DNA of 64,000 nt, taken from an uncultured Hyphomicrobiales bacterium (lineage in GTDB: Bacteria > Bacteroidota > Ignavibacteria > Kapaibacteriales > UBA2268). Made by a program: the position numbers and the translations under genes. Shown here in pieces: positions 15,697 to 61,400 of this stretch. The notes under the pieces were generated by a model. The model worked only from the letters and a program-made list of their open reading frames with translations. It ran no database searches and was not told the DNA's origin. The DNA is taken from NCBI GenBank assembly GCA_964645005.1, contig CAZXYS010000001.1, forward strand, positions 158,645 through 222,644. The letters are read 5' to 3'. The number at the start of each line of letters is the position of its first letter. Within the stretch, counting starts at the first letter, position 1.

Positions 15697-15804
15697 CGGT
15701 TAACGAGTTCGATACGGTTAAGAGCGGTAAAATACAAAACAAAGGTGAGTGGTGATCATAACGGTTACTTAATAAACCATTATTTTGGAATATAATCGGT
15801 TAAG
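15697..15804 (+). promoter_or_regulatory. cluster of CGGTTAA(G) motif copies around the sprA-like start (candidate operator, speculative)
   Basis: CGGTTAA occurs at about 15697, 15715 and 15798, with variants CGGTAAA at about 15725 and CGGTTAC at about 15762. ACGGTTAAGA occurs twice. The cluster lies in the 440-bp AT-rich divergent promoter region and runs into the first codons of the sprA-like gene. Confidence 0.2.
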
Positions 15805-37350: not shown

Positions 37351-39042
37351 ATGCAAATCGAAGGTTCAAAGATTTTAATATTCGGCGGATGGGGACTTGT
37401 AGGTTCTGCGATCTGCCACAAGCTTATGGAACATTCACCCTCACAATTAATTGTATCTTCGTTGAGGCAGTCCGAAGCCGAAGATGCAGTTGAGCATCTG
37501 CGAAAGGAATATTCCGATTGCGACCCGAATATGTTTGTCCCAAAATGGGGAAATATCTTCACAAGAACGGAATGGAAAGATGATTGGTGGGGTGATATCA
37601 TAGAAGATGACCAAAGACGAAAAGGTGTTGTAAAGGATATTTTCAACGAATTGGACGAAGAGATTGTCAAAAAATCGGCACTGTATTCACTGGTGGAAGA
37701 AACTAAGCCGGATATAGTGATTGATTGCGTCAACACAGCAACAGCAATAGCATATCTCGATATTTATAACACAACATTAAATGTAGTTAGAGAAATCGAG
37801 GAAAACAATATAGACAGCAGCGATGTGGAAAAACTGATGACAAGCTCTTATATCCCGCAATTAATAAGACATATCCAGATTCTTAACAGGGCTTTGAACG
37901 ATAACAAAGCTAAATGCTACCTCAAGATTGGAACAAGTGGTACCGGCGGTATGGGAATGAACATCCCCTATACGCACAGCGAAGAAAGACCTTCCAGAGT
38001 TCTTCTTTCCAAAACTGCGGTAGCCGGGGCTCACAGCTTGCTGCTTTTCCTTTTGGCAAGAACCCCCGAAGGTCCTGTCGTTAAGGAAATTAAACCAACT
38101 GCTGCCATTGCCTGGAAACGGATAGCCTACGATAAGGTTAAAAAAGGCGGAAAACCAATTCAAATGGTTGACATGCCGCACGAGAAAGCAAGAAAAGTCA
38201 ACGGCAGTTTCAAGTTTGGCGACATCAACGACATTGAAGATCTTGGGGAAGATTACCAATCGGTCTTTATAGATACAGGCGAAAACGGTATCTTTTCTAA
38301 AGGAGAATTTGAAGCTATTAGCTCCCTCGGTCAGATGGAAATTGTTACACCGGAAGAAATAGCTGCCTACGCTGTCTTCGAATTAGCCGGCGGCAATACA
38401 GGTAAGGACTTTATTCAGGGATTGGACAGCTTCACTCTTGGACCAACCTATCGCGGCGGATTATTGCAAAATTCGGCTCTCGACAAAATCAAAGCTCTCG
38501 AAAAACAGCATAATATCGACAGTGTCGCATTTGAATTACTGGGTCCGCCGAGATTATCAAAACTGCTTTTCGAAGCCTTCCTGATTAAGAAAGTAGCAGG
38601 TTCCATGAGTGATGCCATCTATTATCAACCGGAGGATCTGGCAAATGAAGCCAATAAATTGATCAAGTTTGATGCTGAATTACGTTCCGAGATATTGTCT
38701 ATCGGTTTGGTAATTCTCTTGCCCGACGGCAATAATTACCTGAGAGGCAAACAGGTGAAAATACCTGTAAGCCGCGGGAAATCCGAACCAGAACTCACAC
38801 GGGAAAACGTGGAGCAGTGGTGCTGCGAAGGCTGGCTGGATTTAAGACCATCCAACTTTAAAGAATGGCAAAAGAGATTCAAAAATATCATCGAGCAGGC
38901 TAATAGTATCCCCGAAGATGAAACAAGTTCCAGATTCACTTACACTAAAGAATATTGGCAGGAATTCGAAACTATTGACGAAGGCAAAATCGCCGGTTGG
39001 ATATTTGAATTCGAAGATAAAGGATGGAGATTCAAAAGATAA
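37351..39042 (+). CDS. hypothetical protein with N-terminal Rossmann-fold NAD(P)-binding domain (saccharopine/carboxynorspermidine-dehydrogenase-like GxGxxG)
   Basis: KILIFGGWGLVGSAICHKL is a dinucleotide-binding motif. The remaining roughly 430 aa were not recognised. There is no signal peptide. The gene lies 82 bp upstream of the first giant T9SS cargo gene, in the same orientation. Confidence 0.45.
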   Translation: MQIEGSKILIFGGWGLVGSAICHKLMEHSPSQLIVSSLRQSEAEDAVEHLRKEYSDCDPNMFVPKWGNIFTRTEWKDDWWGDIIEDDQRRKGVVKDIFNELDEEIVKKSALYSLVEETKPDIVIDCVNTATAIAYLDIYNTTLNVVREIEENNIDSSDVEKLMTSSYIPQLIRHIQILNRALNDNKAKCYLKIGTSGTGGMGMNIPYTHSEERPSRVLLSKTAVAGAHSLLLFLLARTPEGPVVKEIKPTAAIAWKRIAYDKVKKGGKPIQMVDMPHEKARKVNGSFKFGDINDIEDLGEDYQSVFIDTGENGIFSKGEFEAISSLGQMEIVTPEEIAAYAVFELAGGNTGKDFIQGLDSFTLGPTYRGGLLQNSALDKIKALEKQHNIDSVAFELLGPPRLSKLLFEAFLIKKVAGSMSDAIYYQPEDLANEANKLIKFDAELRSEILSIGLVILLPDGNNYLRGKQVKIPVSRGKSEPELTRENVEQWCCEGWLDLRPSNFKEWQKRFKNIIEQANSIPEDETSSRFTYTKEYWQEFETIDEGKIAGWIFEFEDKGWRFKR

Positions 39043-39124: not shown

Positions 39125-42100
39125 ATGAAAAGGTTAATACTTTTACTCATCCTCGCGTTCACTATTACCAGTTTTGGCTTAGAAGCCAAAGATGGCAAAA
39201 ATAATGGCGACGAGGTACTGCGAAAGTCGGAATTTCTCGACTTGACCCAACCGGGGAACACAAGTTTCCCAAGGCCTTTCAATGAACTTAATAACCCGAA
39301 TACGCAAGGAGCGATTTCAACGGGCTATTACTTCGTTGACAGTGAATCAGACGCCGGCGACGAATGGAGACCTTCTCCCGAGATCGTCGACACTACTGTC
39401 GACCCGACTACCTGGTTCAGAATTCTATCTGGTCCAAGACAGGCTAAGGTCGACAACAGCTACAGAGAATTCTGGGAACAAAATCCTGATGAAGGATTGC
39501 GTTTCTTCAGAAATCCTGCTCTGCCTGACAACCCGGGTCCCGGAAGAAACTTCTTCCTGGATTTAAGCAACAGTGATTGCTTCGACTGCCATACTGACTC
39601 GACAGACGACGCAATCGCAGGACCAATCCCAATCAAATTCCCGTTCTATTTCAACGGTTTGCGCTTTGACAGTTTCTATGTTGGAACTAATGGTATCGTA
39701 GTTCTGTCCAACAGAAGATATCATTATGACAACGAAGGAAACAGAGTGGTGCCTGCCGGTTCAGAAATGGGTGCTTATGACCCAATGAGTAATGATTGGT
39801 TTGCCCGCGGCAGAAATATGTCAGCTTACAATCAGGGCTTGACTGACCCGACCGACGATAACTACGGCTACAGATATTCTGTTTGCGGTGGTAATCCCGA
39901 GGGCAGCCGTTACGGTGGTATCCGTACCAGACCTGCAAGTAATCCCAACTCTAATAATCTCGGTAGATTGGGTAACTTCGCTCAGGTAATAGCTCCTTTC
40001 TGGGCTGACATGCACCTGTCCCAGTACAACGCTGTTGATAATGAAATTGATGACCACGGAAAAGTTTACTACAAACGTGATAGAGTAGGTAATGAACTTA
40101 TTATCTATTTCATCAACGTTGCTCCGGCAAGAACGAAATACAACCATATCGGTCAGGGATACAATGCTCCTATGAATCGCAGGTTAGGTCATCAGAACTA
40201 TACCTCATCTTCAGCTCAGGTAAAACTTGACCGCCGCGACAGCAGTGTAACAATTACTTACGAATCATTCATCGGCAACGTTGTTATTTCCGGACGCGGC
40301 TATGATGCAAAACTGATCTTCCGCGCCAGTACCACAAGTGGTGTACGCGGATTCGCACGCCACATCAATTATGGTCAAGGCGGCGGCACACAAACACCGT
40401 GGGCATATTACTACGAGCAGATGACACATTACCATAACTGTTTGATATCAACTGCGGTATCTTATCCCAGCAATTATCTGTCGATCAAATTCAAACAGTG
40501 GAAAAACACACTGCGAGTCGTAGATATTCAGTATCGCATAAGAAGTAAAGATCCTGATGCAAATCTTGACTTTGATCCGGATGGCTGCAGGGACTGCCTC
40601 ATAAAAGATCCTAGAAATTACGAATTGCTCGCAGGTCACGAAAGACTGGGCGCAATTCAGCCAGTAGCATTGATCCAGAATATTTCAAATAATATTCAGG
40701 GACCAAATGGAATAAACTTCCAACCACAGGAAATGAACTTCAGGGCAAGATTCTTAATCAAGAACCAGGCTACGGAAAGGATCGTGTATAACAGATTCGT
40801 ACCTATCGACAGCTTATGTCTTTCATTGCCGGACTCGTTGTCCCACATGTGTAAAGGCAATCCTAATATAAGCGTACGCTATGTCAAGGTATCGAAAGAC
40901 AAGTCAGGTAATTACGAAGCTGAAGAACATTCACCAATACTGCCGAACAACTACAACGGAATTCCGCCTTATGGCTTTGTACAGGTTATGTTCCCGCCAT
41001 TTGAGCCAAACGAATTCCTTCCAAACCATATCGGCAGACTGCAGGCATTCGTTATAGCCGAACCGCAGGATCCTCAAACAGGCAGGGGTTTCGGCGATGA
41101 ATGGCCCTTTGACGATACAACGAGCGTACAGTTGTTCTCAATGAACAGACTTGATGAGTTCAAAGATGATGTAACTCATTACCACATCATTGGCAACAAC
41201 CCGATGCCCTCAACTCTGAAATGGGTTAACATCGAAGCAACTATCGCTTCCGGTGATGATGTATCACATCATCCGCTGCCGCCGCGCGGTGAATTCCCTG
41301 CAACTAACAATCTTGACTTTCAACTGAGTAAAAATGAAATTGACTTTACAAACTTCAGGCTGAGGTCACCGGTCATTGAAATGAACCGTAAATTTTTGAG
41401 CGGTCTTGATATGTCATCCGGTCAAAGCGATTATGCAGGCGATGAAATCCGCTCATTCCCGATCAATCTTCTCCGGGGTGAACCGGCTTATAAAGCTGTA
41501 CTTTCCGTATCATTCCAGAGAACAGCAAAACAAAGAGACTGGCCCAGAGGCTGGAGCGACAATATGCTCGTCGGTATCGAGCCAAGACCTTTCATAAACG
41601 GTGACGATCTGTCCTGGATGGGCCGCAAATGGAAAGGCGGAAACTATAACTGGGGAAGTACCGCATCCTACTATCCTGATGAGATCAGAGTAGAACTTAT
41701 GGCTCCCAGTCCCGATGGAATTCACTATATAACAAACGTTGAAGAAGATAGATGGAATATCCATCCACGCAGAGGCGGTCTGAAACCTATTACAGGAGAG
41801 CCAGCCTACAGATTATACGGCTCTAACGGTCACTTTACCGGCTTCTTAGAGTCAGATCCTGATTCTTCGCTCGAACAGTCAAACTGGAATGATCGTCAGG
41901 GCGGCTTCAGAGGCGATGCCTATGACGAAGGTATTGACTATGAATTCCAGAAGGCATACGTTGCCATTCCTGATACCTTCATTAATGCACAGAATCAGGG
42001 CGCCAAGAACTTCAGATTCAGAATCAGAGTATATGCAAGTAACGACAAGAAATGTCTTACCTGTATCCCTGATGACGACGACCAGTTCTATGTGGACAAC

Positions 42101-43993
42101 GTTAAGATCCTGAGAAAATCAGAGATCACCGACATCGAAGTAAGTAAAGTAAGTATAAGATGGCCCTACACAGTGGCGCCGGCATCACAGGCAGAAAAAA
42201 TCCCTGTGTCAGTTAAATTGAGTAACAACACTTCAGTCATGGCACCTCAATACTGGGTGAAAGTCAAGATATTCAAAGGCGGAGGTGATGATATACCACC
42301 GGCATGGGAGGCAATATACTGCGAAACAAAATCAGTTCCTTTCCACAGTGAAAGAGAAGATGAGATTATAGATATGCCCAAATGGAATGCACGAGATCAC
42401 GGACCGGGTGAATATAAGATCGTAGCCAACATTATTATTGAAGGCGGCGACCTTGAACCGTTCAACGATACTACTTACACTGATGTTGAACTGCAATTCG
42501 GTGATGTCTTCGCTTATGATCCTGTACAAAATCCAAGGAACAATGTTGAAGATAACCAGTTTACAGGTGTTCTCGGACGTGGTCTGACACTTTACGGCGC
42601 TGCATTCGGTGGAGTTGGTAATATCAGACGCATAAACTATGGTTCTTATACAACGGAACACGCAGCAGGCGCAAGAGCCGGATCAGGTTCCGGTCAGATA
42701 GCTGCGAAATTCAAGCTTGTCAGAGCTGACACAATCAAAGGCTTCCAGGCATTCTACGGAAGACTCAGTGCTTCTCCTGATAATATATCTCTTGCTATCT
42801 ACACAGACCGGAATGACTTCGTTCCGAATCAAATTGTACCTGGTTCACTTATCTACAAACTGCGTGGATATGACGATGAAAGAGACACTCTGGCTTACGA
42901 TGAATACGTAACTCACTTGCTGGATGATCCGGTAATTCTTCCGGCAGGTACATACTGGGTAGTTGTCGCACAGCTTGGTCACGATGGTATCGAGCTTGGT
43001 GCTTCAAAAACAAGAATGGGTATGAGAACAACAAACTGTTATGTCCAGCCAATTATTACTCAGACTAAGACTATCGGTCAGAGCGGTTTCCACCTGATGA
43101 TCGAGAAGAACTTCAGGAAGAGGATCAATATTGGCCAAGAATACAGGCTGATAAACGATAACTTCTTCGCAGTTGAAAATACGCGCGGAAGTAACGAATG
43201 GATGGCATTTATGCCAACTGTCGGTAACCCGGCTTATGCTCACCTCGATCACTTCGGTGCAGTTGACAACGGTGCTACTGTCACTCTGTCACGCGGCGGA
43301 TGGATCCCGATGTTGAGACCATATCTCGGTGAAAAACCATCAGGTGAGAAGATCGGTGAATATGATCCTTGCCCGGAGGATATTCCTGTCGAACTTACAA
43401 GCTTCGACGGTGTAATGAGCAGAGGCAGAATCGATCTCATGTGGGAAACTGCTTCGGAAACCAACAACTACGGCTTCTATGTTGAAAGAAGAGTAGCAAC
43501 CGATGATCCTAATGCAGAATGGAACAAGATCACAATGGTCAAGAGCAAAGCAGGCGAAAACGGCAACTCGAATGCAACTCTTAGCTACACATACAAAGAC
43601 TATGATGTAACACCTAATACAACATATCAGTACCGGCTGCGCCAGCTTGATATCGACGGTACGGAAGCATGCGAATGCTCAGATATCATTTCCGTCACTT
43701 ACGATCAGGCTTATGCTCTCGATCTGAAGCAGAATTCACCTAACCCGTTCTCTGACTTTACTAACATCAAATTTACCGTTCCCGAAAGGCAGCATGTCAA
43801 GGTTGAAGTTCTTGACATCTATGGTAACGTAGTTTACACAGTTGTCGATGATCAGCTTTCAGCCGGAACGCATGATACCTTTAACTGGAAAGGTATTGAT
43901 CAGAGTGGTAAGAAAGTCGCAAATGGTACTTATATTTGCAGACTTACTGCCGGCGACAAAGTAAGAACGAATAAGATGACAATTACCAGATAA
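39125..43993 (+). CDS. giant (1622 aa) secreted protein with T9SS C-terminal sorting domain; unrecognised domain architecture
   Basis: Signal peptide MKRLILLLILAFTITSFGLEA and a good RBS. The C-terminus LKQNSPNPFSDFTNIKFTVPERQHVKVEVLDIYGN...GTYICRLTAGDKVRTNKMTITR is a Por/T9SS CTD. The body carries conserved Cys pairs (CFDCH, CRDCL, CLTCIPDDDD) and no catalytic motif I can name. Confidence 0.75.
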   Translation: MKRLILLLILAFTITSFGLEAKDGKNNGDEVLRKSEFLDLTQPGNTSFPRPFNELNNPNTQGAISTGYYFVDSESDAGDEWRPSPEIVDTTVDPTTWFRILSGPRQAKVDNSYREFWEQNPDEGLRFFRNPALPDNPGPGRNFFLDLSNSDCFDCHTDSTDDAIAGPIPIKFPFYFNGLRFDSFYVGTNGIVVLSNRRYHYDNEGNRVVPAGSEMGAYDPMSNDWFARGRNMSAYNQGLTDPTDDNYGYRYSVCGGNPEGSRYGGIRTRPASNPNSNNLGRLGNFAQVIAPFWADMHLSQYNAVDNEIDDHGKVYYKRDRVGNELIIYFINVAPARTKYNHIGQGYNAPMNRRLGHQNYTSSSAQVKLDRRDSSVTITYESFIGNVVISGRGYDAKLIFRASTTSGVRGFARHINYGQGGGTQTPWAYYYEQMTHYHNCLISTAVSYPSNYLSIKFKQWKNTLRVVDIQYRIRSKDPDANLDFDPDGCRDCLIKDPRNYELLAGHERLGAIQPVALIQNISNNIQGPNGINFQPQEMNFRARFLIKNQATERIVYNRFVPIDSLCLSLPDSLSHMCKGNPNISVRYVKVSKDKSGNYEAEEHSPILPNNYNGIPPYGFVQVMFPPFEPNEFLPNHIGRLQAFVIAEPQDPQTGRGFGDEWPFDDTTSVQLFSMNRLDEFKDDVTHYHIIGNNPMPSTLKWVNIEATIASGDDVSHHPLPPRGEFPATNNLDFQLSKNEIDFTNFRLRSPVIEMNRKFLSGLDMSSGQSDYAGDEIRSFPINLLRGEPAYKAVLSVSFQRTAKQRDWPRGWSDNMLVGIEPRPFINGDDLSWMGRKWKGGNYNWGSTASYYPDEIRVELMAPSPDGIHYITNVEEDRWNIHPRRGGLKPITGEPAYRLYGSNGHFTGFLESDPDSSLEQSNWNDRQGGFRGDAYDEGIDYEFQKAYVAIPDTFINAQNQGAKNFRFRIRVYASNDKKCLTCIPDDDDQFYVDNVKILRKSEITDIEVSKVSIRWPYTVAPASQAEKIPVSVKLSNNTSVMAPQYWVKVKIFKGGGDDIPPAWEAIYCETKSVPFHSEREDEIIDMPKWNARDHGPGEYKIVANIIIEGGDLEPFNDTTYTDVELQFGDVFAYDPVQNPRNNVEDNQFTGVLGRGLTLYGAAFGGVGNIRRINYGSYTTEHAAGARAGSGSGQIAAKFKLVRADTIKGFQAFYGRLSASPDNISLAIYTDRNDFVPNQIVPGSLIYKLRGYDDERDTLAYDEYVTHLLDDPVILPAGTYWVVVAQLGHDGIELGASKTRMGMRTTNCYVQPIITQTKTIGQSGFHLMIEKNFRKRINIGQEYRLINDNFFAVENTRGSNEWMAFMPTVGNPAYAHLDHFGAVDNGATVTLSRGGWIPMLRPYLGEKPSGEKIGEYDPCPEDIPVELTSFDGVMSRGRIDLMWETASETNNYGFYVERRVATDDPNAEWNKITMVKSKAGENGNSNATLSYTYKDYDVTPNTTYQYRLRQLDIDGTEACECSDIISVTYDQAYALDLKQNSPNPFSDFTNIKFTVPERQHVKVEVLDIYGNVVYTVVDDQLSAGTHDTFNWKGIDQSGKKVANGTYICRLTAGDKVRTNKMTITR

Positions 43994-44042: not shown

Positions 44043-44078
44043 CAGCCCTCTGGTTAAAAACGGAGGGCTGTTTTTTTT
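44043..44078 (+). terminator. rho-independent terminator after first giant paralog
   Basis: CAGCCCTC-TGGTTAAAAACG-GAGGGCTG hairpin followed by T8. Confidence 0.7.
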
Positions 44079-44144
44079 AAAAAAAACTTTTCCGGTGCCT
44101 TAACGACTTAAAAAATTGTTCTTAAAATTATTGGGAGATGCCTT

Positions 44145-47100
44145 ATGAAAAAGCTGCTGCTTTTGTTGAGTCTGTTATTACCTTTTAACATTTCAGTTAT
44201 AAATGCTGAAGATGGTAAGAACAACGGAGATGAGTTGTTAAGAGAATCAAAGTTTTTCGACATAACTCAGCCGGGTAACACAAGCTTCCCCAGCCCCTTC
44301 ACTGAACTTGATAATCCAAGCACAAAGCCTGGAGTTACCACCGGTTATTTTTTTGTCGACAGTGAATCGGATATTGAAGATAACTGGAGACCAAGACCAA
44401 TAATAGTTGATACCACTGAAGACCCAACAAATTGGTACAGGATTTTGTCCGGCCCCCGGCAAGTGAAAGGTTCCGATGGGAATTACAGGACTTACTGGGA
44501 AGAACATTAGGGAGAAGGGCTGCGCTTCTTCAGGAATCCGGCATTACCTGAAAATCCGGGACCAAATCGTAACTTCTTTCTTGACTTAAGCAACAGTTCT
44601 TGTTCTGATTGCCATACTGACTCTACCGATGATGCGATCGCCGGACCTATCTCCATAAAATTCCCATTTTACTTCAACGGACTGCGTTTTGACAGTTTCT
44701 ATGTCTCGACTAACGGAATAATTGCGCTGACCAACAGGCGTTATTATTACGACGACAACGGAAACAGAACAATACCTGATGATTCAAAGACCGGCGCTTA
44801 TGACCCTATGAGCAACGACTGGTTCGCCCGTGATAGAGATATGGATGCTTATAATGACGGCTTGACTGATCCAACAAAAGATAATTACGGGTACAAATAC
44901 TCTGTATGCGGCGGAGATCCTTTAAGCAGGTTTGGAGGTATACGCAAAAGGACTTTGAGTACCCCCGAAGATAATGACTTGAGCAATCTGGGTAATTTTG
45001 CACAGGTAATTGCACCGTTTTGGGGAGATATGCATCTGTCGCAGTATGATGCACCTGATAGAGTTGTTGATGACCACGGTAAGGTGTATTATAAACGTTA
45101 TGATGACAGTGATGAACTGTTAATTTATATCATGAACATCTCACCAGTGAGAACCAAATATAATCAACTGGGACAGGAATATACGGCAAAAATGGATATA
45201 AGGCTTGGAGATAACAATTATGCTTCGGCATCAGCGCAAATAAAGCTTAATGGTGCTGACAGCAGCATAACTTTTACCTATGAATCTTTCATCGGAAATG
45301 TTGTAATTCGTGGGCGTGGTTACGATCCCAAGCTTATATTCCGCGCAAGTACAACCAGTGGTGTAAGAGGTTTCGCTCGTCATGTCAATTATGGACAGAG
45401 TGGTGGTACCAAGCACCCCTGGGCAAATTACTACGAGCAGTTGACTCATTATAGCAATTGTCTGAAATCATTGGAAGTAAGTCATCCTTCTAACTATCTG
45501 GCAATAAAATTTAAACAATGGAAAAATACATTAAGAACTGTTGATATACAATTTCGTGTACGTAGTAAGGATTCGACAGAAGGGCTTGATTTTGCTCCCG
45601 AAGGATGTACGGATTGTTTGATAAAAGATCCCAGGTATTTTGAGATGTTAGCCGGTCATGAACGTCTCGGCGCTATACAGCCCGTAGGATTGATACAAAA
45701 TCTCTCGAATAATATACAGGGTCAGGGAGGTATTAACTTCCAAGAGCAGGATTTGAATTTCGGTGCAAGATTTACTATCAAGAATCAGGCAACCGAAAGA
45801 TTGCTTTATAGCAAATATGTTCCCATTGACAGCACTTGTCTGGCATTGCCGGATTCATTGTCACATTTGTGCGATGGCGATTCCACCACCAGCGTCCGTT
45901 ATGTCAAGGTATATAAAGATAAGAATGGGGATTACGAAACTTCGGAGTACTATCCTCCGCTGCCGGATGACTATAACGGCATTCCACCTTATAAATTTGT
46001 AGAGGTAGTATTTCCTCCTTTTATCCCAAATGAATATCTGCCCAATCATGTAGGACGCTTGCAGGCGACGCTCTCAGTAGAGCCACAGGATCCTTCCACC
46101 GGTGAAGGCTTTGGCGATGAATGGCAATTTGATGATACCGCAAGTGTAGTGCTGTTCTCCATGAACAGGCTTAATGAATTCAAGGATGATGTAACTCATT
46201 ATCATTTGATTGGTAACAACGCAATACCTTCGACGCTGAAATGGGTAAACATTGATGCGGAAGCAGCAGACGGCGACGATGTTTCACACCATCCGTTGCC
46301 TCCAAGAGGTGAATATCCGGCGACCAACAATCTTGATTTTAATTTGGATACAAATGATATTGATTTTACTAAATTCCATCTAAACTCTCCTGTGATAGAA
46401 ATGAACCGCATGGATCTTAAGGGAAATGATAAATCCAGCGGTCAAAGCGATTATGCAGGAGATGAGATACGTTCGTTCCCTATAAATCTACTCAAAGGTG
46501 AACCTGCTTATGATGCTGTTATTTCGGTTTCCTTGCAGCGAACAGCTAAACGGAGAGACTGGCCCCGTGGCTGGAGCGATAACATGCTGATAGGTATCGA
46601 ACCACGCCCATTCATAAATGGTGATGAGCTGTCCTGGATGGGGCGCTATTGGAATAGCAGGAAGCTCGACTGGGAGGCTGCCGCTTCCTGCTATCCCGAT
46701 GAGCTAAGGATCGAATTGCTGGCTCCGAGCCCGGATGGCGTACACTATATCACCAATCCGGATGAAGAAAGATGGACACTTCATCCCCGCAGAGGCGGTC
46801 TGGAGCCCGTAACAACCGAACCTGCATATAGATTATACGGTTCTAATGGGCATTTCACAGGATTTTTAGAGTCCGATCCCGACTCATCACTGAATCAAAC
46901 TAATTGGAATAACTTTCAGGGCGGTTTAAGGAGCGACATTTACGACGACGGAATAGACGAAGAATTCCAAAAAGCTTACGTAGAAATTCCCGATACTTTC
47001 ATCAATGCTGCAAACGAAGGTGCCAGGAACTTCCGCTTTAGAATAAAGGTTCACGCAAGCAACGACCGGAAATGCCCCACCTGCATACCCGATGACGACG

Positions 47101-48985
47101 ATAATTTCTATGTGGATAATGTTAAATTGCACAGAAAATGTGGGTGTACGGATATTGAAGTTTCCAAAGTTGATATTAAATGGCCCTACACATGCGTGCC
47201 TGCTACTCAGGCTGAGAAAATACCGATAGAGGTTAAGCTGAGTAATAATACATCAGTAATGGCACCGCAATATTGGGTAAAAGTCAGAATATATGAGGGA
47301 AATCCTGATTCAATCCCGCCAGAGAGATTCGCAATCTATTGTAAAAGGGAACCAATTCCATTCCACAGGGAAAGAGAAGAAGTAATCGAATTTATGCCAA
47401 AATGGAATGCCCGAAGGCATGGCGAAGGAAAATTTTTAGTTGTAGCCAACATCATGCTTTCAGGCGGTGATCTTGAAAGATTTAATGATACTACCTATAA
47501 ATTAGTTGAAATTAACTACTGTGATGTTTTTGCTTATGATTCCTACACAAATCCTAAAAATAATGTTGAAGATAAGCAATTCACAGGTTATTGGGGTGGT
47601 GGGTTAAATTTGCGTGGATATAACTACGGCGGTATGGGAAGCATAACTTCTGTCTACCCGGAATATTATGAAACAAAATATATATGTGGTGATCACGGAG
47701 GCTCCGGTAGCGGGCAGATAGCCGTAAAATTTGAGCTTGTCAGGTCGGATACTATCAAAGGTTTTCAGGCGTTTTACGGAAGGCTGAGTGGTAACCCGAA
47801 TAATGTATCTCTTTCTCTTTATACTGATAATGGGTATGACCTGCCGTCAACATTAATTCCCGGTTCCGTAATATACAGGATTCGCGGATACGATGACTTA
47901 AGAGATACTTTCAGATTCGATCATTATGTCACACATTTGTATGATGATCCTATTGTTTTGCCTCGCGGCACTTACTGGGCTGTCATAGGTCAGCTTGACG
48001 AGGAAGGAATTGAGCTCGGAGCCTCAAAATCACGCATGGGCATGAGGACAACCAACTGTTACGTCCAGCCAATTGTTACCCAGACAAAAGAAATCGGTCA
48101 AAAGGGTACTCATTTGATGATACATGACGTTTTCAGGAAGAGGATCAACATCCAGGGAAGATATTATTCAATAAATGAAAACTTTTTTGCTATGGAAAAT
48201 AATTTCAGAAGCGGTAATTGGAAACCATTCATGCCAACAGAAGGCAATCCTGCTTATGCTCACTTAGATCACTTCGGCTCTGTCGATGACGGAAAAACCG
48301 TTACACTGTCAAGAGGCGCATGGATCCCAATGTTAAGACCATATCTTGGCGAAAAGAGTTCCGGAGGCTATTGGATACCGGTAGAACTCACATCCTTCGA
48401 CGGTGTCATGAGCAAGGATAGAATTGACCTCATGTGGGAAACCGCATCAGAGAGCAGCAATTTCGGCTTTTACGTAGAAAGAAGACTAGCAACGGATAAT
48501 CCAAACGCCGAGTGGAACAAAATCACATTGGTCAAGAGTAAAGCGGGAGATGGCGGCAATTCCAACACCCCATTGAGCTACACATACAAGGATTACGATG
48601 TGATGCCAAAGACGACATACCAGTATCGCCTGCGCCAGCTTGACATTGACGGCACAGAAGATTGCGAATGTTCAAGAGTGATTTCAATTTATTACGATCC
48701 TGATTATGCTATAGCGCTGAATCAGGTCGCGCCCAATCCTTTCTCTGATATGACGAAGATCATCTTCACCATACCGGAAAGGCAGCATGTAAGATGGAGA
48801 TTCTTGATATATACGGGAATATAGTTAAGTCAATAGTAGATAAGGAACTTTCCTTAGGCACACATAGCACATACTATTGGGAGGGCGTCGACAACAGCGG
48901 CAGAAAAGTCAGCAGCGGCACCTACATTTGCCGATTAACCGCCGGCGATAATGTCAGGACGAGGAAAGTGACGGTGGCGAGATAA
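44145..48985 (+). pseudogene. tandem paralog of the 39125..43993 giant T9SS cargo gene, disrupted by one in-frame TAG and one 1-nt frameshift
   Basis: ORFs 44145..44510, 44808..48824 (same frame) and 48794..48985 (frame -1) align collinearly with paralog 1 across their whole length, at about 70% aa identity. A TAG at 44508-44510 replaces a sense codon (paralog 1 WEQNPDEGLRFF vs WEEH*GEGLRFF). A 1-nt deletion at about 48791 (paralog 1 GTCAAGGTT vs GTAAGATG) shifts the frame just before the T9SS CTD. It has its own signal peptide and RBS. Confidence 0.65.
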
Positions 48986-48994
48986 GCACAGGTA

Positions 48995-49136
48995 GGACAG
49001 ACCTCCGGACTGTCAACAAGCAGCCCATCTGGACTGTAAATTAGCGTAACAACTTAAGTTCTACCAAAAGTAGTATGACAGACCTCTTGGTCTGTCAAAA
49101 AGGGGGAGGGGTAGCACAGACCTCCCGGTCTGTCCC
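48995..49136. repeat. array of three related short hairpin repeats (ACAGACCTC core)
   Basis: GGACAGACCTCCGGACTGTC at about 48995-49014. TGACAGACC-TCTT-GGTCTGTCA at about 49077-49098, a perfect 9-bp stem. CACAGACC-TCCC-GGTCTGTC at about 49116-49136, followed by a T-run. Spacing is irregular, at 82 and 39 bp. Confidence 0.55.
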
Positions 49137-54097: not shown

Positions 54098-57000
54098 ATG
54101 AAAAAAACAGTCGGCGTTTGTCTTGGCGCTTCCACAGTATCATTTGTGTTGGTATCGGGAACTGAAAACGGTGATTTGAATATAGAAAAGCATTTATCTG
54201 TCAAACATGACGGCGATCCAAAAGGAACTTTTCTCGAAAATCTCAAAAAATTCAATCCCGATAAGCTGCCAACGGTCGTCACCGGCAGGAAATTCAGGAA
54301 TATCGTTACTCTTGACAACATTTCCGAGCCGGAAGCCACTGAATTAGCATTTAATCACATAAAAAACAAAGATGATAAATACGATGCCATCGCGAGTCTC
54401 GGCGGCGAGACTTTCATGGTTTATACCCTCGATGATGAATCGAAAATTTCCGGTGTCTACACTAAGAATCAGTGCGCTTCGGGGACAGGTGAATTTTTCC
54501 TGCAGCAGATAAAAAGAATGGATTTATCTGTATCGGAAACGCTGGATATTTCCCAGAATGCAGAGCCTCATAAAGTCTCGGGTCGCTGCTCGGTCTTCTG
54601 CAAATCGGATTGCACTCATGCCCTGAACAAAGGGACGCCTAAATCGGAAGTAACAGCCGGGCTGGCGCTGATGATCGCCGAAAAGATAGAGGAACTTCTG
54701 AAAAAAGTGCATGGCGGCAGGTATCTCGTCATCGGCGGTGTAACTCAGAACACGGTTGTCATGAAGTTTCTCCGGGAAATGTTCACGCAGGTGGAAGTGC
54801 CCGAAGAAGCTACATATTTTGAGGCATTTGGCGCCGCTATTTACGGGTTAAAAAAGAGAACTAAAAATTTTGAATCATTCGATAATATTCTTGTTGAGAA
54901 GGAAAGTTCCTTCACATTCCTGCAGCCTCTTTCAAAATACAGCGACATGGTCAAATACGAGACTATGGAAAAAGGGAAAGCGCATGACGGAGATAGATGT
55001 ATTCTCGGGCTGGACGTAGGCTCGACGACTACGAAAGCTGTAGTAATCCGAACCGAAGATAACAGTATTCTCGGCTCGGTATATCTCTACACTAACGGCA
55101 ATCCAGTTCGGGCTTCCCGGCAATGCTACGAGGAATTGCTGAAACAAATACCCGAAAAAATCAATATTGTCGGACTTGGCGCTACCGGATCGGGAAGGCA
55201 GATAGCAGGGCTGCACGCATTGACCGACGGCGTTATCAACGAAATAGTCGCTCACGCTACGGCAGCAGTATATTTCGATTCCGAAGTGGATACTATCTTT
55301 GAAATTGGCGGGCAGGATGCAAAATATACATACATCATCAACAAAGTACCAGCCGATTATGCCATGAATGAGGCATGTTCCGCCGGAACGGGCTCATTTA
55401 TCGAGGAATCCGCTTATGAATCACTGGGGATAAAAGTCACTGACATCGAAAAAATTGCTATGAAAGGGCAGGCGCCGCCCAATTTCAGCGATCAGTGCGC
55501 CGCTTTCATAAGTTCGGATATTAAAACCGCTTTGCAGGAAGATATTAGGAAAGAAGATATAGTCGCAGGTCTGGTTTACTCAATTTGCATGAATTATGTC
55601 AACCGTGTAAAGGGCAATCGGCAGGTTGGCAAAAAGATTTTCATGCAGGGCGGCGTTAGCTATAACAAGGCTGTACCTGTTGCGATGGCGGCGCTTACGG
55701 ACAAAGAAATTATAGTTCCGCCGGAACCCGGGCTGATGGGCGCTTTCGGTGTGGCGCTGGAAGTGAAAGAAAAGATGGAACTGGGTTTCATTAAAGAGAA
55801 GCACTTTGATCTCGCCGAGCTTGCAGCAAGAGATGTGAATTACAAGAAATCTTTCATCTGCCGCGGCGGCAAAGAGAAATGCGACCGCAAGTGCGTCATA
55901 AATAATATTGAAGTGAATGGTAAGAAATATCCGTTCGGCGGCGCCTGTAACCGCTACTACAACTTACGTTATCACCGGAAAGATATAGCAACCGAAGAAT
56001 ACGACTGGGTAAAGCGGCGTCAGCAAATAACATTCGAAAAATACGCGCCGCAGGTGGATTTACCGGAAGATGCGCCGACCGTAGGTATAAATCTGTCATT
56101 CCACACCTACACTCTATATCCGTTGTACTATAATTTCTTTACAAAACTGGGATTCAGAGTGATTCTGCCGGACGATCTCGATGAGGACGCCCTTGAAAGA
56201 GAACTGACGTCTTTCTGCTTCCCGGCGCAGATCTCTCTCTGCACATTTCAGAACCTGCTGGCGAAAAATCCTGATTATATCTGGGTTCCGCATTTATCCG
56301 AGCTATATGTAAATGATGAAGAAGAATACAGGATAGACTTCTGCAGTACGTGTGTGTTCGTGTGTGCAGAGCCGTACTTTCTGAAGCAGGCATTCAAGGA
56401 TTATCAGCTTGATGGAAGAATGATCCACCCGAATCTGATAATGGCGAGCGGCTATGATTCCGAGCAGGATAAATTCGTGGAATCGGCAAAACAAATGGGT
56501 ATTACCAACGAAGAGAAGATCAGAGAAGCCCATAGATTTGCCGCCGAGCTGCAAATTCAATACCAGGACGAATTGTTCGAGATAGGCGAGGATTTCCTGA
56601 AATTCTTAGAGGAAAATCCCGACGAATTCGCTATGGTACTGGTTGGCAGACCTTATAATGCCTTCACTGATTTTGCCAATAAGGGGATACCCCGAAAATT
56701 CGCTTCCCGCGGTATCCATGTACTGCCCTACGATATTTTCGACTACCGCGATGAGTCTGTCGATGACAATATGTATTGGGAAGGCGGCAAGAAAATTTTG
56801 AAAGTCGCGAAGGTGATCAAAAGGCATCCGCAATTATTCGCAACCTATGTTTCCAATTTTTCCTGCGGACCGGATTCGCTTATAGTCCCTAAATTCCGTA
56901 AAATTATGGGGACGAAACCTTCTCTAACACTCGAACTCGACAGCCACAGCGCCGACGCAGGTATCAATACCCGTATCGATGCTGCCCTGGATATAATCCG

Positions 57001-58471
57001 CAATTACAGGAAAATCCAGGATACGGTCAAAGATCCCGAGGATAAGGATTTCGTCCTGGCGACCTGCTCAATTGCCGACGACTGGGTGTATTTCAACAGT
57101 TCCGAAGGAGAGAGCCTTAAGATAACCGATCCGAAAATCAAAGTGCTGATCCCATCGATGGGCGATCTGGCAGCGCCGATGTTTGCCGCGGCAATGCGCA
57201 ATTTCGGCATCAACGCCGAAGCCCTGCCCGAAGCTAACTGGGATATTCTCAAATATGCACGCGCTAATTCAACAGGAAAGGAATGTCTGCCGCTGCTGCT
57301 GCTGGCGGGGTCGCTTGTGGATTACATGGAAAATCGCTGGGACGGTCAGGAATACGTAGCTCTGTTTAACGTGCAGGGCGGCGGGAATTGCCGGCTTGGT
57401 CAATATCCGCCATTTTTGCGAGATTTGATCAGAAATAAAAGATATCGCAATGTCGCAACTTTCGAACTAATGAATGATGACGGCTTCACAGGCTTGGGAC
57501 CGGATTTTGCCAAATATGCCATTCAAAATCTGTTGATAAGCGATGTCCTCGACGACGTCCGCAGCGCTATCATGGCTAATGCCGTCGATCCCGAGGAAGG
57601 TCTTAAAGTATTTTATGAAGAGTATAACAAGGTTGTTCAAACAATGGTCGAAGATCAGGATAAAGTATTCGGGCAGCTTGAACGGATGGCTAAGCGGCTG
57701 CGCAGCGATGTTCCCGCTCGCATACCTATTGAAGAATCGAAATATATTGCATTGGTTGGCGAGATATACGTCCGGCGCGATGGCTTCTCGCACAAGTGGC
57801 TGAACAAGGAATTTGCAAAGAAGGGCTTTGTCATAAAAGATGCCTACATTGCTGAATGGATCTTCTACGTTGATTATCTCCTGCAGATCAATCTGCTGGA
57901 AGCGGATAAGTCTCTTAAAATGTGCTACGAGCAGAAGATTCGCAGCATGTTCATGCGCAGCGCCGAAAAGAAAATCAAAAAAATCATGGAAAAAAGCGGT
58001 TGGTATGAGTACATGCCGATAGAAGTCGAACCGCTGCTGGAAGCAAGCAAACACATTTTACCTTTAGAATACAAAGGGGAACCGGGCATAACTCTGGGCG
58101 TTTCATTGCACGAGACGCTAACTCATTATTGCGGAGTGATAAACATTGGTCCGTTTGGTTGTATGCCGACGCGCCTGTCGGAAGCTATCACCATTCCGAA
58201 TATGACCGTCAACGATAAAATAAACGCCGAACGCCGTAGGGATCCCAAATACAACCTTTCCGAAGTATTCAACGGCAATATGACAATACCATACTTATCG
58301 ATCGAAACGGACGGCAACGTATATCCGCAGATAACCGAAGCGCGCCTCGAGACTTTCACTTTGCAATGTGAGCGCGTCGCCGGACTTATGAAGAAAGCTA
58401 AGATGAAGAACGGGAAAAACGGTGATGGCAAATTCCAGCCGTTTAAGGTAATAGAGAAGGCATTTAAATAA
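54098..58471 (+). CDS. fused CoA-substrate-specific enzyme activase (double BadF/BadG/BcrA/BcrD-type ATPase) / 2-hydroxyacyl-CoA dehydratase-component-like protein
   Basis: Two ASKHA-type ATPase modules (VGVCLGASTVSFVL...; ILGLDVGSTTTKAVVI...GIGATGSGRQ) are followed by about 900 aa with conserved Cys clusters (FICRGGKEKCDRKC; CSTCVFVCAEPY; FSCGPDS), as in the DUF2229/HgdB-BcrC-like regions of large 'CoA enzyme activase' fusion proteins. 1457 aa. Confidence 0.6.
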   Translation: MKKTVGVCLGASTVSFVLVSGTENGDLNIEKHLSVKHDGDPKGTFLENLKKFNPDKLPTVVTGRKFRNIVTLDNISEPEATELAFNHIKNKDDKYDAIASLGGETFMVYTLDDESKISGVYTKNQCASGTGEFFLQQIKRMDLSVSETLDISQNAEPHKVSGRCSVFCKSDCTHALNKGTPKSEVTAGLALMIAEKIEELLKKVHGGRYLVIGGVTQNTVVMKFLREMFTQVEVPEEATYFEAFGAAIYGLKKRTKNFESFDNILVEKESSFTFLQPLSKYSDMVKYETMEKGKAHDGDRCILGLDVGSTTTKAVVIRTEDNSILGSVYLYTNGNPVRASRQCYEELLKQIPEKINIVGLGATGSGRQIAGLHALTDGVINEIVAHATAAVYFDSEVDTIFEIGGQDAKYTYIINKVPADYAMNEACSAGTGSFIEESAYESLGIKVTDIEKIAMKGQAPPNFSDQCAAFISSDIKTALQEDIRKEDIVAGLVYSICMNYVNRVKGNRQVGKKIFMQGGVSYNKAVPVAMAALTDKEIIVPPEPGLMGAFGVALEVKEKMELGFIKEKHFDLAELAARDVNYKKSFICRGGKEKCDRKCVINNIEVNGKKYPFGGACNRYYNLRYHRKDIATEEYDWVKRRQQITFEKYAPQVDLPEDAPTVGINLSFHTYTLYPLYYNFFTKLGFRVILPDDLDEDALERELTSFCFPAQISLCTFQNLLAKNPDYIWVPHLSELYVNDEEEYRIDFCSTCVFVCAEPYFLKQAFKDYQLDGRMIHPNLIMASGYDSEQDKFVESAKQMGITNEEKIREAHRFAAELQIQYQDELFEIGEDFLKFLEENPDEFAMVLVGRPYNAFTDFANKGIPRKFASRGIHVLPYDIFDYRDESVDDNMYWEGGKKILKVAKVIKRHPQLFATYVSNFSCGPDSLIVPKFRKIMGTKPSLTLELDSHSADAGINTRIDAALDIIRNYRKIQDTVKDPEDKDFVLATCSIADDWVYFNSSEGESLKITDPKIKVLIPSMGDLAAPMFAAAMRNFGINAEALPEANWDILKYARANSTGKECLPLLLLAGSLVDYMENRWDGQEYVALFNVQGGGNCRLGQYPPFLRDLIRNKRYRNVATFELMNDDGFTGLGPDFAKYAIQNLLISDVLDDVRSAIMANAVDPEEGLKVFYEEYNKVVQTMVEDQDKVFGQLERMAKRLRSDVPARIPIEESKYIALVGEIYVRRDGFSHKWLNKEFAKKGFVIKDAYIAEWIFYVDYLLQINLLEADKSLKMCYEQKIRSMFMRSAEKKIKKIMEKSGWYEYMPIEVEPLLEASKHILPLEYKGEPGITLGVSLHETLTHYCGVINIGPFGCMPTRLSEAITIPNMTVNDKINAERRRDPKYNLSEVFNGNMTIPYLSIETDGNVYPQITEARLETFTLQCERVAGLMKKAKMKNGKNGDGKFQPFKVIEKAFK

Positions 58472-58481
58472 AATGATTTAA

Positions 58482-61400
58482 TTGTCAAAAATAAAAATTT
58501 ATTATTTTTGGAAAATGGATAATTCCGAAAATAAAAATATGAATTCCTCGGAAAATACCATACAATCCATTGCTCATGCGATTGTTGATGAAACTTCCGA
58601 AGTGATGAAGACCGCCCAATCCGAGGAAGATCTAGGGATAGCTTTTGAAAAAATACTTGGTATTCACCTTCAGCAGCTTGGCTTAAAAACTTACCCCAAA
58701 TATGAGAAAACTATCTTCGAAGCAGGGAAGAGATCAGATGCCCTGCACGGTCAAATCATTATAGAATATGAAAAGCCGCGATCACTACAATCTAAGGGCA
58801 GAGTTGATCATGCTTTCGAACAGCTTGCAGGGTACATTTCCGGCGAAGCCGAAGCTAACAAAGATGTACTGGATATATCGAAACCAAAATATATCGGTGT
58901 CGGCTTTGACGGCGGGCAAATCTTTTTTGTTCGTTATAAGGGGCAAATTGACAGTGATAAAAATAAGATAGATAGATCGGAATTTGTTCTGGCGGGACCT
59001 TTTAATTTCGATCATGAAAGCGCCCGCACACTGTTGACTTATTTCAGAGCTCTGACTAAATTCCTGCTTACGCCGGAGAATTTGGCAGAGAGATTTGGAC
59101 CTTCCGGCAAAATAGCGCCGGTTATGGTTACCGCATTTACGGATGCGATTCAAAATTGGAGCGACCGTAAGATCAAAGTTTTCTTTGATGAATGGAAGCG
59201 GCTTTTTGGAATAGTTTACGGTGAGCATTTTAATAATAATTCGCAAAAAGATCTCGAAACACTTAACAAGCTCTATAATATCAAGAAAGATGTAGGATTC
59301 CAGGAATTACTCTTTTGCATACATACGTATTTTGCCCTTTTGATGAAGTTAATAGCTGCGGATCTGCTGGCTTTGAAAGACAGCACTCTGACTTCGTTGT
59401 ACAGCCAGAAACTGGTACACCTTTCGGAATCAGACCTTAAACGACAGCTTTATGACATTGAGCAGGGCGGAATTTTTGCCAAAAGGGGGATATCCAATTT
59501 TCTTGAAGGCGACTTTTTCAGTTGGTATCTGAATGCTTTTTCATCGCCGCGTTTGCAGGAAGGGCTTCGCGAAATGATTAGAGCTTTGTCGAATTTTGAG
59601 CCCGCGACATCGCTTATAACGCCTGAAACAACAGTCGATCTTCTGAAAAAGCTCTATCAGTATCTCGTTCCCAAAGAAGTCAGGCACAGATTGGGCGAGT
59701 ATTATTCGCCTGATTGGCTGGCGGAATTGACTTTAAATGAATTGGGATATGAGGGAAAAACAACTAAACGGCTATTGGATCCCGCCTGCGGTTCCGGTAC
59801 TTTTTTAGCGCTTGCAATTCAAAAAGCCAAGGAATCCGACAAAAAGCAAAATAACAAACGTATTGAAACGGCAAAACAAATCGTTAATAATATATGGGGC
59901 TTCGATTTAAATCCGCTCGCAATAATAGCATCCAGAACAAACTACCTGTTTGCAATGGGGGAACTTATAGAGGAATTGGACGAGGTGGAAATACCGGTAT
60001 ATCTTGCCGATTCCGTCCTTTGCCCCGAGCGCACAAGCGGTCAGATGGAAATAGCACCTGCTTACGGTAAACACATAAAAATGCACACCTCGGTTGGCAG
60101 TTTTCATGTTCCTTATATATGGATCAAGGATAACGGTATTCTTCTGAAAAGGGCGGCGCCTCTGATTGAGTGGTTAGTTAAAGATCAGTTTGAAAGCGAA
60201 ATAGCGTTAAAGCATTTGAAAGAAGCAGGCTGCGCCTATCCGCCTCATGAGAAGACTGTCGAGCATTTTTACAATGAAATTCTAGAGCTGGAAAAAGGCG
60301 ACAAAAACGGCATCTGGGCACGATTTTTGAAAAATGTATTTGCGCCGATAATGGCAGGAAAATTCGATTACATAGCGGGCAATCCGCCCTGGATAAGATG
60401 GGGCTATTTAGCCAGGGAATACCGTAATGCTACTCTGAATCTATGGAAAAACTACGGTTTATTTTCTCTTAAAGGGTTCGAAGCGCGTCTGGGCGGCGGC
60501 GAAAAGGATTTTTCCATGCTGTTTGTTTATTCGGTAACTGACAATTTCCTTAAAAATGGCGGTAAGCTCGGTTTTCTGATAACACAGGAAGTATTCAAAT
60601 CAAAAGGCGCCGGCGAGGGTTTCAGGAAGTTTTACTATGGTGATAATGATAAAAGAACATATCTGAAAGTATTGAAGGCTCATGATTTCGTATCGTTGCA
60701 GCCTTTTGAGGGCGCCGCAAATAAAAGCGCTGCTATCTTCCTGAAAAAAGGTGAAAAGACAAAATATCCGGTGCCATACTATGTTTGGTCAAAGAAAAAA
60801 GGCGCAGGCAGAATTCAACCGAATATGCCCGCAAAAGAGACATCAATAAAATTGAAGAAACGCAAGCTGCTTGCCAGACCGATAGGTAAATTATCAGGTT
60901 CATGGCAAACACTGACTTTAAAACAAAAGAATTTGAAAAAAATATCCGGCGAGAATTATTATAAAGCAAGACTGGGTGCTCGAGTTGAGCCTTACGGAGT
61001 CTTTTGGATAAATATACAACAGACATTCAAGGATGATACTGCCATAGTCAATAATCTTTATAACAGAGGAAAAAGAGAGGTTTTTTCTGTTACGGAAAGG
61101 ATTGAAACTGACCTTATTTACCCGATTGTAAGCGGCAGAGATGTAGGAAGGTGGGGCGCTATTCCCAAACACTATGTAGTATTACCGCAGGATACCGAAA
61201 AGCGCGAGCCCTATCCCGAAAAATATATGAAGGAAAATTACCCGAGGACTTTCAACTACCTGACTAATTTCAAAGAGATACTATTATCGAGGGGTTCGAA
61301 GACAGTGCGAAATCTTGCTGAGAGAACCGCTTTTTATGCAATGTTTGGGATAGGGGAATACACAGTTGCCAGATACAAAGTCGTCTGGAAGAGAATGGCA

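Follow-up and report, generated by a model that had tools for sequence, protein, structure and literature searches.

A tandemly duplicated giant T9SS cargo gene whose downstream copy is probably a young pseudogene

The window analyzed here is a stretch of 64,000 nucleotides from contig CAZXYS010000001.1 (assembly GCA_964645005.1). It contains two giant T9SS cargo genes in tandem, paralog 1 and paralog 2, of which the second is interrupted at two sites. The features of the locus are as follows:

39125-43993, + strand: paralog 1, intact giant T9SS cargo gene, a single open reading frame of 1622 amino acids
44043-44080, + strand: terminator-like hairpin (44043-44070; stem of 10 bp with 7 GC pairs) and T-run, putative function
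44133-44137, + strand: Shine-Dalgarno-like GGGAG, 7 nt 5' of the paralog 2 ATG, read directly
44145-48985, + strand: paralog 2, probable pseudogene, 1613 codons after repair
44145-44207, + strand: signal-peptide-like N-terminus of paralog 2, MKKLLLLLSLLLPFNISVINA, judged by eye
44508-44510, + strand: lesion 1, in-frame TAG at codon 122
45752-46358, + strand: variable tract of 607 bp; of the 50 differences that separate the window from the Logan haplotype, 47 fall here
48726-48985, + strand: C-terminal T9SS sorting domain (type A) of paralog 2, which as encoded is divided by the frameshift
48791-48793, + strand: lesion 2, 1-nt deletion, GTAAG in place of the expected GTAAAG
48794-48985, + strand: open reading frame of 63 codons in the -1 frame, rest of the sorting domain (FlgD_ig match, 28.8 bits)
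48822-48824, + strand: premature TAG, reached in frame 0 past the frameshift

Paralog 1 occupies the ancestral position directly 3' of a conserved 563-aa gene, and its product matches the NCBI protein P0002 exactly. Repaired paralog 2 aligns with it from end to end at 71.6% amino acid identity and all of the 11 gap columns are in-frame, which bears out the sequence-only reading that the genes are collinear tandem copies over 4.8 kb. Compensating frameshifts, sought as local drops in similarity along the alignment of the two paralogs, were not seen. The strong hairpin between the genes is a hint that paralog 2 is transcribed as a unit of its own. As to the signals attributed to paralog 2 in the same reading, its own putative ribosome binding site (GGGAG; paralog 1 has AGGAG at a comparable distance from its start) and its sorting domain were recovered, while the signal peptide is a judgement by eye. 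Both N-termini begin with MK(R/K), continue with hydrophobic residues and close in an Ala-x-Ala-like manner.

Read in frame 0 from the ATG at 44145, paralog 2 contains one stop codon within its first 1559 codons, the TAG of lesion 1, beyond which the frame remains open until the TAG at 48822-48824. Termination there deprives the frame-0 product of about 62 residues at the C-terminal end of the sorting domain. Addition of one A to CATGTAAGATGG (AA at 48791-48792) yields a single open reading frame of 1613 codons that ends with the TAA at 48983-48985; the codon regained is AAG (Lys), which is also found in paralog 1 and in the majority of the family. The scan of reading frames together with the repair confirmed that one in-frame TAG and one 1-nt deletion are the only disabling lesions, and a closer alignment to paralog 1 revealed no further decay over the approximately 1600 codons. 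At lesion 1 the family column is variable (Pro 43, Lys 11, Asn 7, Ser 5 and others), and TAG can arise from AAG or TCG in one step. Homologs possess sense codons at both sites, and the two lesions were scored relative to paralog 1 and about 120 homologs.

The sorting domain of repaired paralog 2 scored 32.8 bits against TIGR04183 (cut-off 23; model positions 1-71 of 72) and 29.2 bits against PF18962 (cut-off 27). For paralog 1, the respective values were 28.9 and 28.6 bits at the same cut-offs, and a FlgD_ig match was obtained as well. The window also harbors the T9SS translocon gene SprA (SprA_N match, E 1.7e-50, in the 2316-aa open reading frame at 15785-22735) and two further cargo genes carrying a sorting domain. 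The paralogs share with known T9SS type A cargo (Por_Secre_tail/TIGR04183 domain; Bacteroidota, Chlorobiota and Ignavibacteriota; large SprB-type adhesins) the type A sorting domain, a very large all-beta body and the presence of SprA in the window, and by eye their N-termini resemble signal peptides. What separates them from such cargo is the body of about 1500 residues, for which searches of Pfam, NCBIfam and PDB sequence families gave no match, and the confinement of the family to MAGs of the Kapabacteria/Ignavibacteria type, where it forms a conserved core locus adjoining the 563-aa gene, whose product is Rossmann-like. AlphaFold models of the family revealed only generic matches to ConA-like, Ig and FN3 folds, and on these models the family is a group of uncharacterised all-beta T9SS cargo proteins of about 1600 residues. 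A resemblance of the N-terminal region to a NIDO-like domain, seen in the motifs FYFNG...VSTNG...IAPFWxD, is a lead only, as hmmscan with residues 150-420 of paralog 1 at E values up to 5 assigned it to no family. A literature search on the SRA accessions and on Kapabacteria together with T9SS gave nothing useful. A syntenic family of proteins of this size without recognisable body domains is a reasonable target for structural and functional study.

In a neighbor-joining tree the two paralogs are sisters, and in the nearest relatives (L007, L008, L011 and L018) a single copy is flanked by the same 563-aa gene and the same HIT gene. Since the paralogs are sisters and the nearest relatives are single-copy at the syntenic locus, the duplication is lineage-specific. 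Tandem extra copies were detected at about 14 genome loci of the family. Among about 120 other family copies, four have one in-frame stop codon (TAA, TGA, TAA and one more) and one has a frameshift; the single nonsense mutations lie mostly in extra tandem copies, such as copy 2 of L024 and copy 2 of L055. Taken at face value, the pattern is one of birth-and-death evolution of the family.

Comparison of the paralogs gave a pN of 0.18 and a pS of 0.79; the dN/dS ratio proposed as a check in the sequence-only reading is not expressible because synonymous sites are saturated. Paralog 2 has retained all 78 invariant residues of the family and 182 of the 186 columns conserved at 95% or more. It carries 164 residues unique to it, compared to 76 unique to paralog 1 (chi2 32), and has changed about twice as fast. 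As 4.6% of the possible substitutions create a stop codon, one nonsense mutation corresponds to approximately 22 neutral substitutions or a divergence of about 0.45% (95% upper bound about 2.1%). The inactivation, which had been suspected to be very recent, does appear young, since pN is low next to the saturated pS, the invariant residues are kept and just two lesions are present in 4.8 kb.

One or both of the lesions recur in Logan assemblies of the runs SRR7048228 (L001/L002), SRR7048219 (L003 and L005), SRR7048220 (L004) and SRR7048218 (L006). The 53-nt context of lesion 1 is identical in L001/L002, L003, L004 (SRR7048228, -219 and -220) and the NCBI contig, and the 55-nt context of lesion 2 is identical in L001/L002, L005, L006 (SRR7048228, -219 and -218) and the NCBI contig. 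All of the five assemblies compared are in the OFF state, the broken allele being the only one seen. The supporting runs have neighboring accession numbers and probably stem from one study or site, so that 'fixed' refers to this population, which may contain a minority intact allele. The check for an intact copy in other genomes, suggested earlier, was carried out with the full-length sequence and with N-terminal and C-terminal fragments on 5.8 billion proteins and the JGI metagenome contigs; nothing was found beyond paralog 1 or proteins of 51-55% identity, with imperfect coverage by the fragment searches, which apparently return only proteins close to the query in length and missed known fragments.

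L001 to L003 represent another haplotype of paralog 2 than the window. Within the 607-bp tract, which accounts for nearly all of the differences, the haplotypes diverge by 7.7% with a dN/dS of 0.17. The tract gives the pseudogene a mosaic structure of the recombination type. The dN/dS of 0.17 shows that selection on paralog 2 persisted in some close lineage, and intact alleles of the gene therefore probably exist somewhere. Two other origins of the tract were rejected. Gene conversion from paralog 1 does not account for it, as paralog 1 agrees with the window allele at 21 of the variable sites and with the Logan allele at 17, and differs from both at 10. DGR-type mutagenesis was discarded because all base types are changed and third codon positions are mostly affected.

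We consider paralog 2 to be a genuine young pseudogene and put the probability of this reading at approximately 0.86. In Kapabacteria/Ignavibacteria the gene is conserved, single-copy and fixed in its location; in the lineage of this organism it was duplicated in tandem. Both copies were then under purifying selection, with amino acid changes accumulating about twice as fast in the downstream one, until this copy recently acquired two independent disabling lesions. The TAG at codon 122 would leave a stub of 121 amino acids bearing the putative signal peptide, and a product of internal re-initiation would be devoid of an export signal. The 1-nt deletion is predicted to remove most of the sorting domain. 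The C-terminal sorting domain is required by the T9SS for export and surface attachment; on the basis of this established biology, each of the lesions should abolish function on its own. In the sampled population no allele other than the broken one was seen, and the function is presumably carried by paralog 1. The outcome would be the non-functionalisation of a redundant duplicate in a birth-and-death family. The loss of a redundant spare copy is ordinary biology that is well documented here. The locus resembles other pseudogenes of duplicated genes in its lineage-specific tandem duplicate, the faster evolving copy, the small number of lesions and the intact sister, and also in the repeated duplication and decay elsewhere in the family. 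Nothing essential differs, except that paralog 2 is unusually well dated as young. It provides a clean and datable case of a duplicate that is dying soon after a long period of selection.

It is conceivable, though unlikely, that the inactivation was adaptive, for instance because phages or predators used the protein as a receptor or because its synthesis was costly, and that the broken allele was swept through the population. That five assemblies and two haplotypes show this allele alone would fit such a sweep, as would the two disabling lesions in an otherwise undecayed gene and the recurrence of single nonsense mutations in the family, mostly in extra tandem copies. However, mutation and drift would be expected to leave lesions at roughly the observed incidence of 4% in a gene of 4.8 kb, and the redundancy provided by paralog 1 suffices for neutral loss. 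Moreover, the samples are probably from one population, with just two haplotypes that are nearly identical.

Still less probable, in our estimation, is a general role of silent copies in Kapabacteria, either as a recombination reservoir or as genes repeatedly lost under phage or predator pressure. This reading derives from the 607-bp mosaic tract, a sign that segments are exchanged with diverged alleles at this locus, and from the recurrent single lesions in extra tandem copies. If it were true, an uncultured lineage would have a surface-variation strategy built on an uncharacterised core T9SS protein family. Like contingency loci with slipped-strand ON/OFF switching and silent cassettes such as pilS and vls, the locus has a silent copy beside a presumably expressed one, and the mosaic tract within silent paralog 2 is a further likeness to cassette systems. 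By contrast with contingency loci, paralog 2 has neither a repeat tract at its lesions nor an ON allele among the assemblies. Silent cassettes differ from it in that no conversion tracts between the paralogs were detected; their nucleotide identity is flat, ranging from 56 to 81% in 200-nt windows.

The assumption that paralog 2 is phase-variable, or that it is expressed by programmed recoding (read-through of the TAG and a -1 frameshift), is very improbable. Genes of large surface proteins are typical contingency loci, paralog 2 is otherwise perfectly preserved, and the sorting domain would be regained by a -1 shift at any point of the 76 nt (48749-48824) over which the frames overlap. On the other hand, no homopolymer or simple-sequence repeat is present at either lesion, an X XXY YYZ slippery heptamer is absent from the overlap, and neither an invertible element nor the flanking inverted repeats of an invertible promoter were found around paralog 2. 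The longest runs of the gene, T7 at 44348 and T6 at 48183, lie away from the lesions and are in frame. The ON/OFF switch considered in the sequence-only reading receives no support from these findings or from the OFF state of all five assemblies. The lesions are not conserved features either, as the homologs, continuous in one frame, show regular sense codons at either site, and recoding would need two independent rare events in one gene. Use of TAG as a genuine stop, noted before for the S8 peptidase gene (26186-29095, minus strand), was confirmed and strengthened by four more genes, so that TAG terminates five confident genes in the window, which speaks against reassignment and read-through alike. 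Window-wide, an in-frame TAG that splits two long open stretches within one gene occurs only in paralog 2.

An origin of both lesions in sequencing or assembly errors, with paralog 2 in truth an intact gene, an option raised from the sequence, is hardly credible: single-base lesions in a MAG are a classic artefact, and a single, unconfirmed lesion is present in about 4% of the family's other copies from public MAGs, but here identical lesions recur in the independent assemblies of four runs and in the NCBI contig, on two haplotypes, lesion 1 is a substitution, lesion 2 lies in an A-run of 3 nt, which is not a homopolymer error context, and the other genes of the window are intact, with full-length Pfam matches of the neighbors. 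A third paralog that could confuse assemblers was searched for across the window and not found. The lesions of paralog 2 should not be 'polished' out of assemblies, and 44145-48985 should be annotated as one pseudogene rather than as three open reading frames. Public gene callers split it into products of 121, 1338 and 63 amino acids, and in two Logan assemblies the open reading frame of 63 codons is annotated as a gene of its own.

Paralog 2, the broken tandem copy of the giant T9SS cargo gene, is a genuine pseudogene of recent origin, derived from a tandem duplication specific to this lineage. The phenomenon is an ordinary one. The points of interest beyond it are an uncharacterised conserved protein family and a small recombination mosaic within the pseudogene. 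The ORF map of the two copies reads as follows:

39125-43993, paralog 1, intact gene of 1622 codons
44145-44510, same strand as paralog 1, first ORF piece of paralog 2 (121 aa)
44808-48824, same strand as paralog 1, second piece (1338 aa)
48794-48985, same strand as paralog 1, third piece (63 aa)

In frame 0 from 44145, a single stop was detected in the initial 1559 codons, TAG at 44508-44510 (codon 122), and the next one is TAG at 48822-48824. Insertion of one A into CATGTAAGATGG (AA, 48791-48792) restores a single ORF of 1613 codons ending with TAA at 48983-48985. The repaired product and paralog 1 can be aligned over their entire lengths (71.6% identity, 11 gap columns, all in-frame). The N-terminus of paralog 2 is signal-peptide-like, GGGAG is located 7 nt upstream of the ATG, and a strong terminator-like hairpin sets the two genes apart. 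The T9SS type A sorting domain of the repaired protein is full-length and scores above curated thresholds. Hence, the sequence-only reading, which had described a copy collinear with paralog 1 that keeps its own signal peptide, RBS and T9SS CTD and is broken by exactly one TAG and one 1-nt deletion, was right in every element.

That reading had also considered sequencing or assembly errors. The window is part of a 222,752-bp NCBI contig, and the protein databases contain an entry 100% identical to paralog 1 (P0002) as well as the 1338-aa fragment of paralog 2 (P0121). In Logan assemblies of SRA runs, the lesion contexts (53 nt around the TAG, 55 nt around the deletion) were matched exactly:

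L001/L002, SRR7048228: TAG context yes, deletion context yes
L003, SRR7048219: TAG context yes, deletion region not covered
L004, SRR7048220: TAG context yes, deletion region not covered
L005, SRR7048219: TAG region not covered, deletion context yes
L006, SRR7048218: TAG region not covered, deletion context yes

L001/L002, which carry both lesions, are 99.7% identical to the window across 16.5 kb. The recurrence of the same contexts in independent assemblies cannot be put down to chance errors in reads or to the behaviour of a single assembler. The genes neighbouring paralog 2 gave full-length domain matches, and no other stop-split gene was found in the window. Both lesions are real.

Judging from the sequence, paralog 2 is very probably neither a switch nor a recoded gene. 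An ON/OFF-switchable surface protein had been proposed, yet neither lesion lies in a homopolymer or simple repeat, no inverted repeats flanking the promoter region were found, and the copy was OFF in five of five assemblies. As to recoding, TAG was already regarded as a genuine stop on account of the S8 peptidase gene, and four further confident window genes (SIS/CBS, RodZ-like, DUF2279 and GT2 glycosyltransferase) end with it as well. At the TAG position, homologs have ordinary sense codons in a variable family column (Pro 43, Lys 11, Asn 7 and others). A frame change with both ORFs open is possible solely in the 76-nt stretch 48749-48824, which does not contain a slippery heptamer, and AAG, the codon restored at the frameshift, encodes Lys, the majority residue of the family.

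The comparison of the paralogs revealed saturated synonymous sites (pS 0.79) and a pN of 0.18, even along the gene, from which it follows that both copies were under purifying selection for nearly their whole separate history. Every one of the 78 residues invariant among 85 other members of the family is retained in paralog 2, as are 182 of the 186 columns conserved to at least 95%; its mismatch count is one that intact members also show (median 2, maximum 25). Since 4.6% of random substitutions in paralog 2 create a stop, one nonsense codon corresponds to about 22 neutral substitutions or approximately 0.45% divergence (95% upper bound approximately 2.1%). The very recent inactivation suggested beforehand is borne out by these estimates, relative to the age of the duplication.

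Neighbour-joining of 88 family sequences places the window paralogs as sisters, with L007/P0004 and P0003 as nearest relatives (54-63% identity). Synteny at the locus is strong throughout the clade, the gene order being GT2, MatE, 563-aa Rossmann-like, giant gene, HIT, KpsF-like, RodZ-like, DUF2279, GT2. Because the nearest relatives have one giant gene at the same site, between the 563-aa gene and HIT, the duplication is lineage-specific. Tajima's relative-rate test with P0003 as outgroup gave 164 unique residues for paralog 2 versus 76 for paralog 1 (chi2 32), and four other outgroups yielded similar results; the faster evolution of paralog 2 is the asymmetry usually seen when one duplicate is relaxed.

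Tandem doubles or triples originated repeatedly in the family (L016/L019, L025/L031/L039, L040, L054, L055, L059, L077, L089/L091, L094). Among about 120 other copies, four are interrupted by a single in-frame stop (TAA, TGA, TAA and one more), a fifth by a frameshift (L024, 9342; L055, 15489; L075, 12089; L104, 570-3356; L101, about 4554-4567). Two of these broken members are an extra tandem copy. Their defects may reflect real decay or assembly errors of public MAGs and metagenome contigs; the differing stop codons and positions are a further argument against recoding. Truncated remnants also occur, and this doubling and decay fits birth-and-death evolution.

Tandem duplication was followed by long purifying selection at unequal rates and then by two independent lesions. 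The nonsense codon would leave a 121-aa stub carrying the signal peptide, a re-initiated product (e.g. from ATG 44808) would be devoid of an export signal, and the frameshift would cut some 62 residues from the sorting domain. T9SS cargo needs this domain for export and attachment, so either lesion alone would be disabling. The function is presumably covered by paralog 1, and the broken allele is the only one found in the sampled population.

L001 shows 50 differences from the window, 47 of which fall within paralog 2 at 45752-46358, a tract of 607 bp with sharp bounds and 7.7% divergence, while the remaining ~15 kb contain three. L003 has the same Logan haplotype, its contig stopping within the tract. 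Copying from paralog 1 was ruled out, as neither haplotype is systematically closer to it; a third giant gene was not found in the window. The changes are mostly at third codon positions (dN/dS 0.17, dS 0.25). Most simply, the tract was brought in by homologous recombination from a diverged relative in which selection acted on the copy of paralog 2. This implies that intact orthologs are present in nature or were so until recently; the public collections searched contained none. The tract sits between the two lesions, both of which are common to both haplotypes.

Neither paralog 1 nor a profile of 30 family sequences matched a sequence family in Pfam, NCBIfam or the PDB outside the sorting domain at the C-terminus, which leaves about 1500 residues without a Pfam model. 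AlphaFold2 predicted nearly all beta-strand for residues 1-1000 and 901-1622 (mean pLDDT 76 and 74.5). Foldseek against the PDB retrieved, with low TM-scores throughout, generic ConA-like and glucanase-like sandwiches for the N-terminal model (best E 6e-5) and Ig/FN3 arrays, S-layer, adhesin and macroglobulin-type structures for the C-terminal one (best E 7e-9). The best inference is a large protein of multiple beta-sandwiches that is attached to the surface; it is probably an adhesin or a component of the cell envelope. Its probable export by T9SS is in line with the translocon gene and two other cargo genes in the window:

15785-22735, + strand, sprA (T9SS translocon gene)
10939-15342, - strand, DUF7948/PKD/beta-propeller cargo with sorting domain, 1467 aa
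26186-29095, - strand, S8 peptidase cargo with sorting domain

Acidic and cysteine motifs are strongly conserved in the family, for example C..CIPDDDDxFxVDNV (near residues 977-992 of paralog 1) and TDSTDDAIAGPIPI (near residues 156-169). The FYFNG...IAPFWxD region may resemble NIDO domains; hmmscan did not confirm this.

The 563-aa gene (37351-39042, +) gave a weak N-terminal Rossmann/epimerase-like match; the precomputed Pfam label of its product is PF27054 Beta_methylindole_red_C. It lies immediately 5' of the giant gene at nearly every locus across Kapabacteria/Ignavibacteria, and its product is better conserved (52-71% identity) than the giant gene. This near-constant adjacency and the conservation suggest that the two are functional partners. 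Many records named 'MAG TPA_asm: uncultured Hyphomicrobiales bacterium' (binchicken and SRP co-assemblies) carry this Kapabacteria/Ignavibacteria-specific locus, as do one 'Chloroflexota', one 'Desulfobulbaceae' and one 'Patescibacteria' record (L010, L011, L016, L018, L021 and others); these labels look wrong.

A short GACAGACC...GGTCTGTC hairpin motif occurs three times at 48991-49134 in the 230-nt pseudogene-HIT spacer. Two copies fit the palindrome pattern, for which shuffles predict none. The motif may act as a terminator or represent a small REP-like repeat. An ORF of 1096 aa (58482-61772, +) with Eco57I/MmeI-type N6-methyltransferase domains probably encodes a restriction-modification enzyme of type IIG/IIL and adjoins a BadF/BcrA-type CoA-enzyme activase fusion of 1457 aa (54098-58471).
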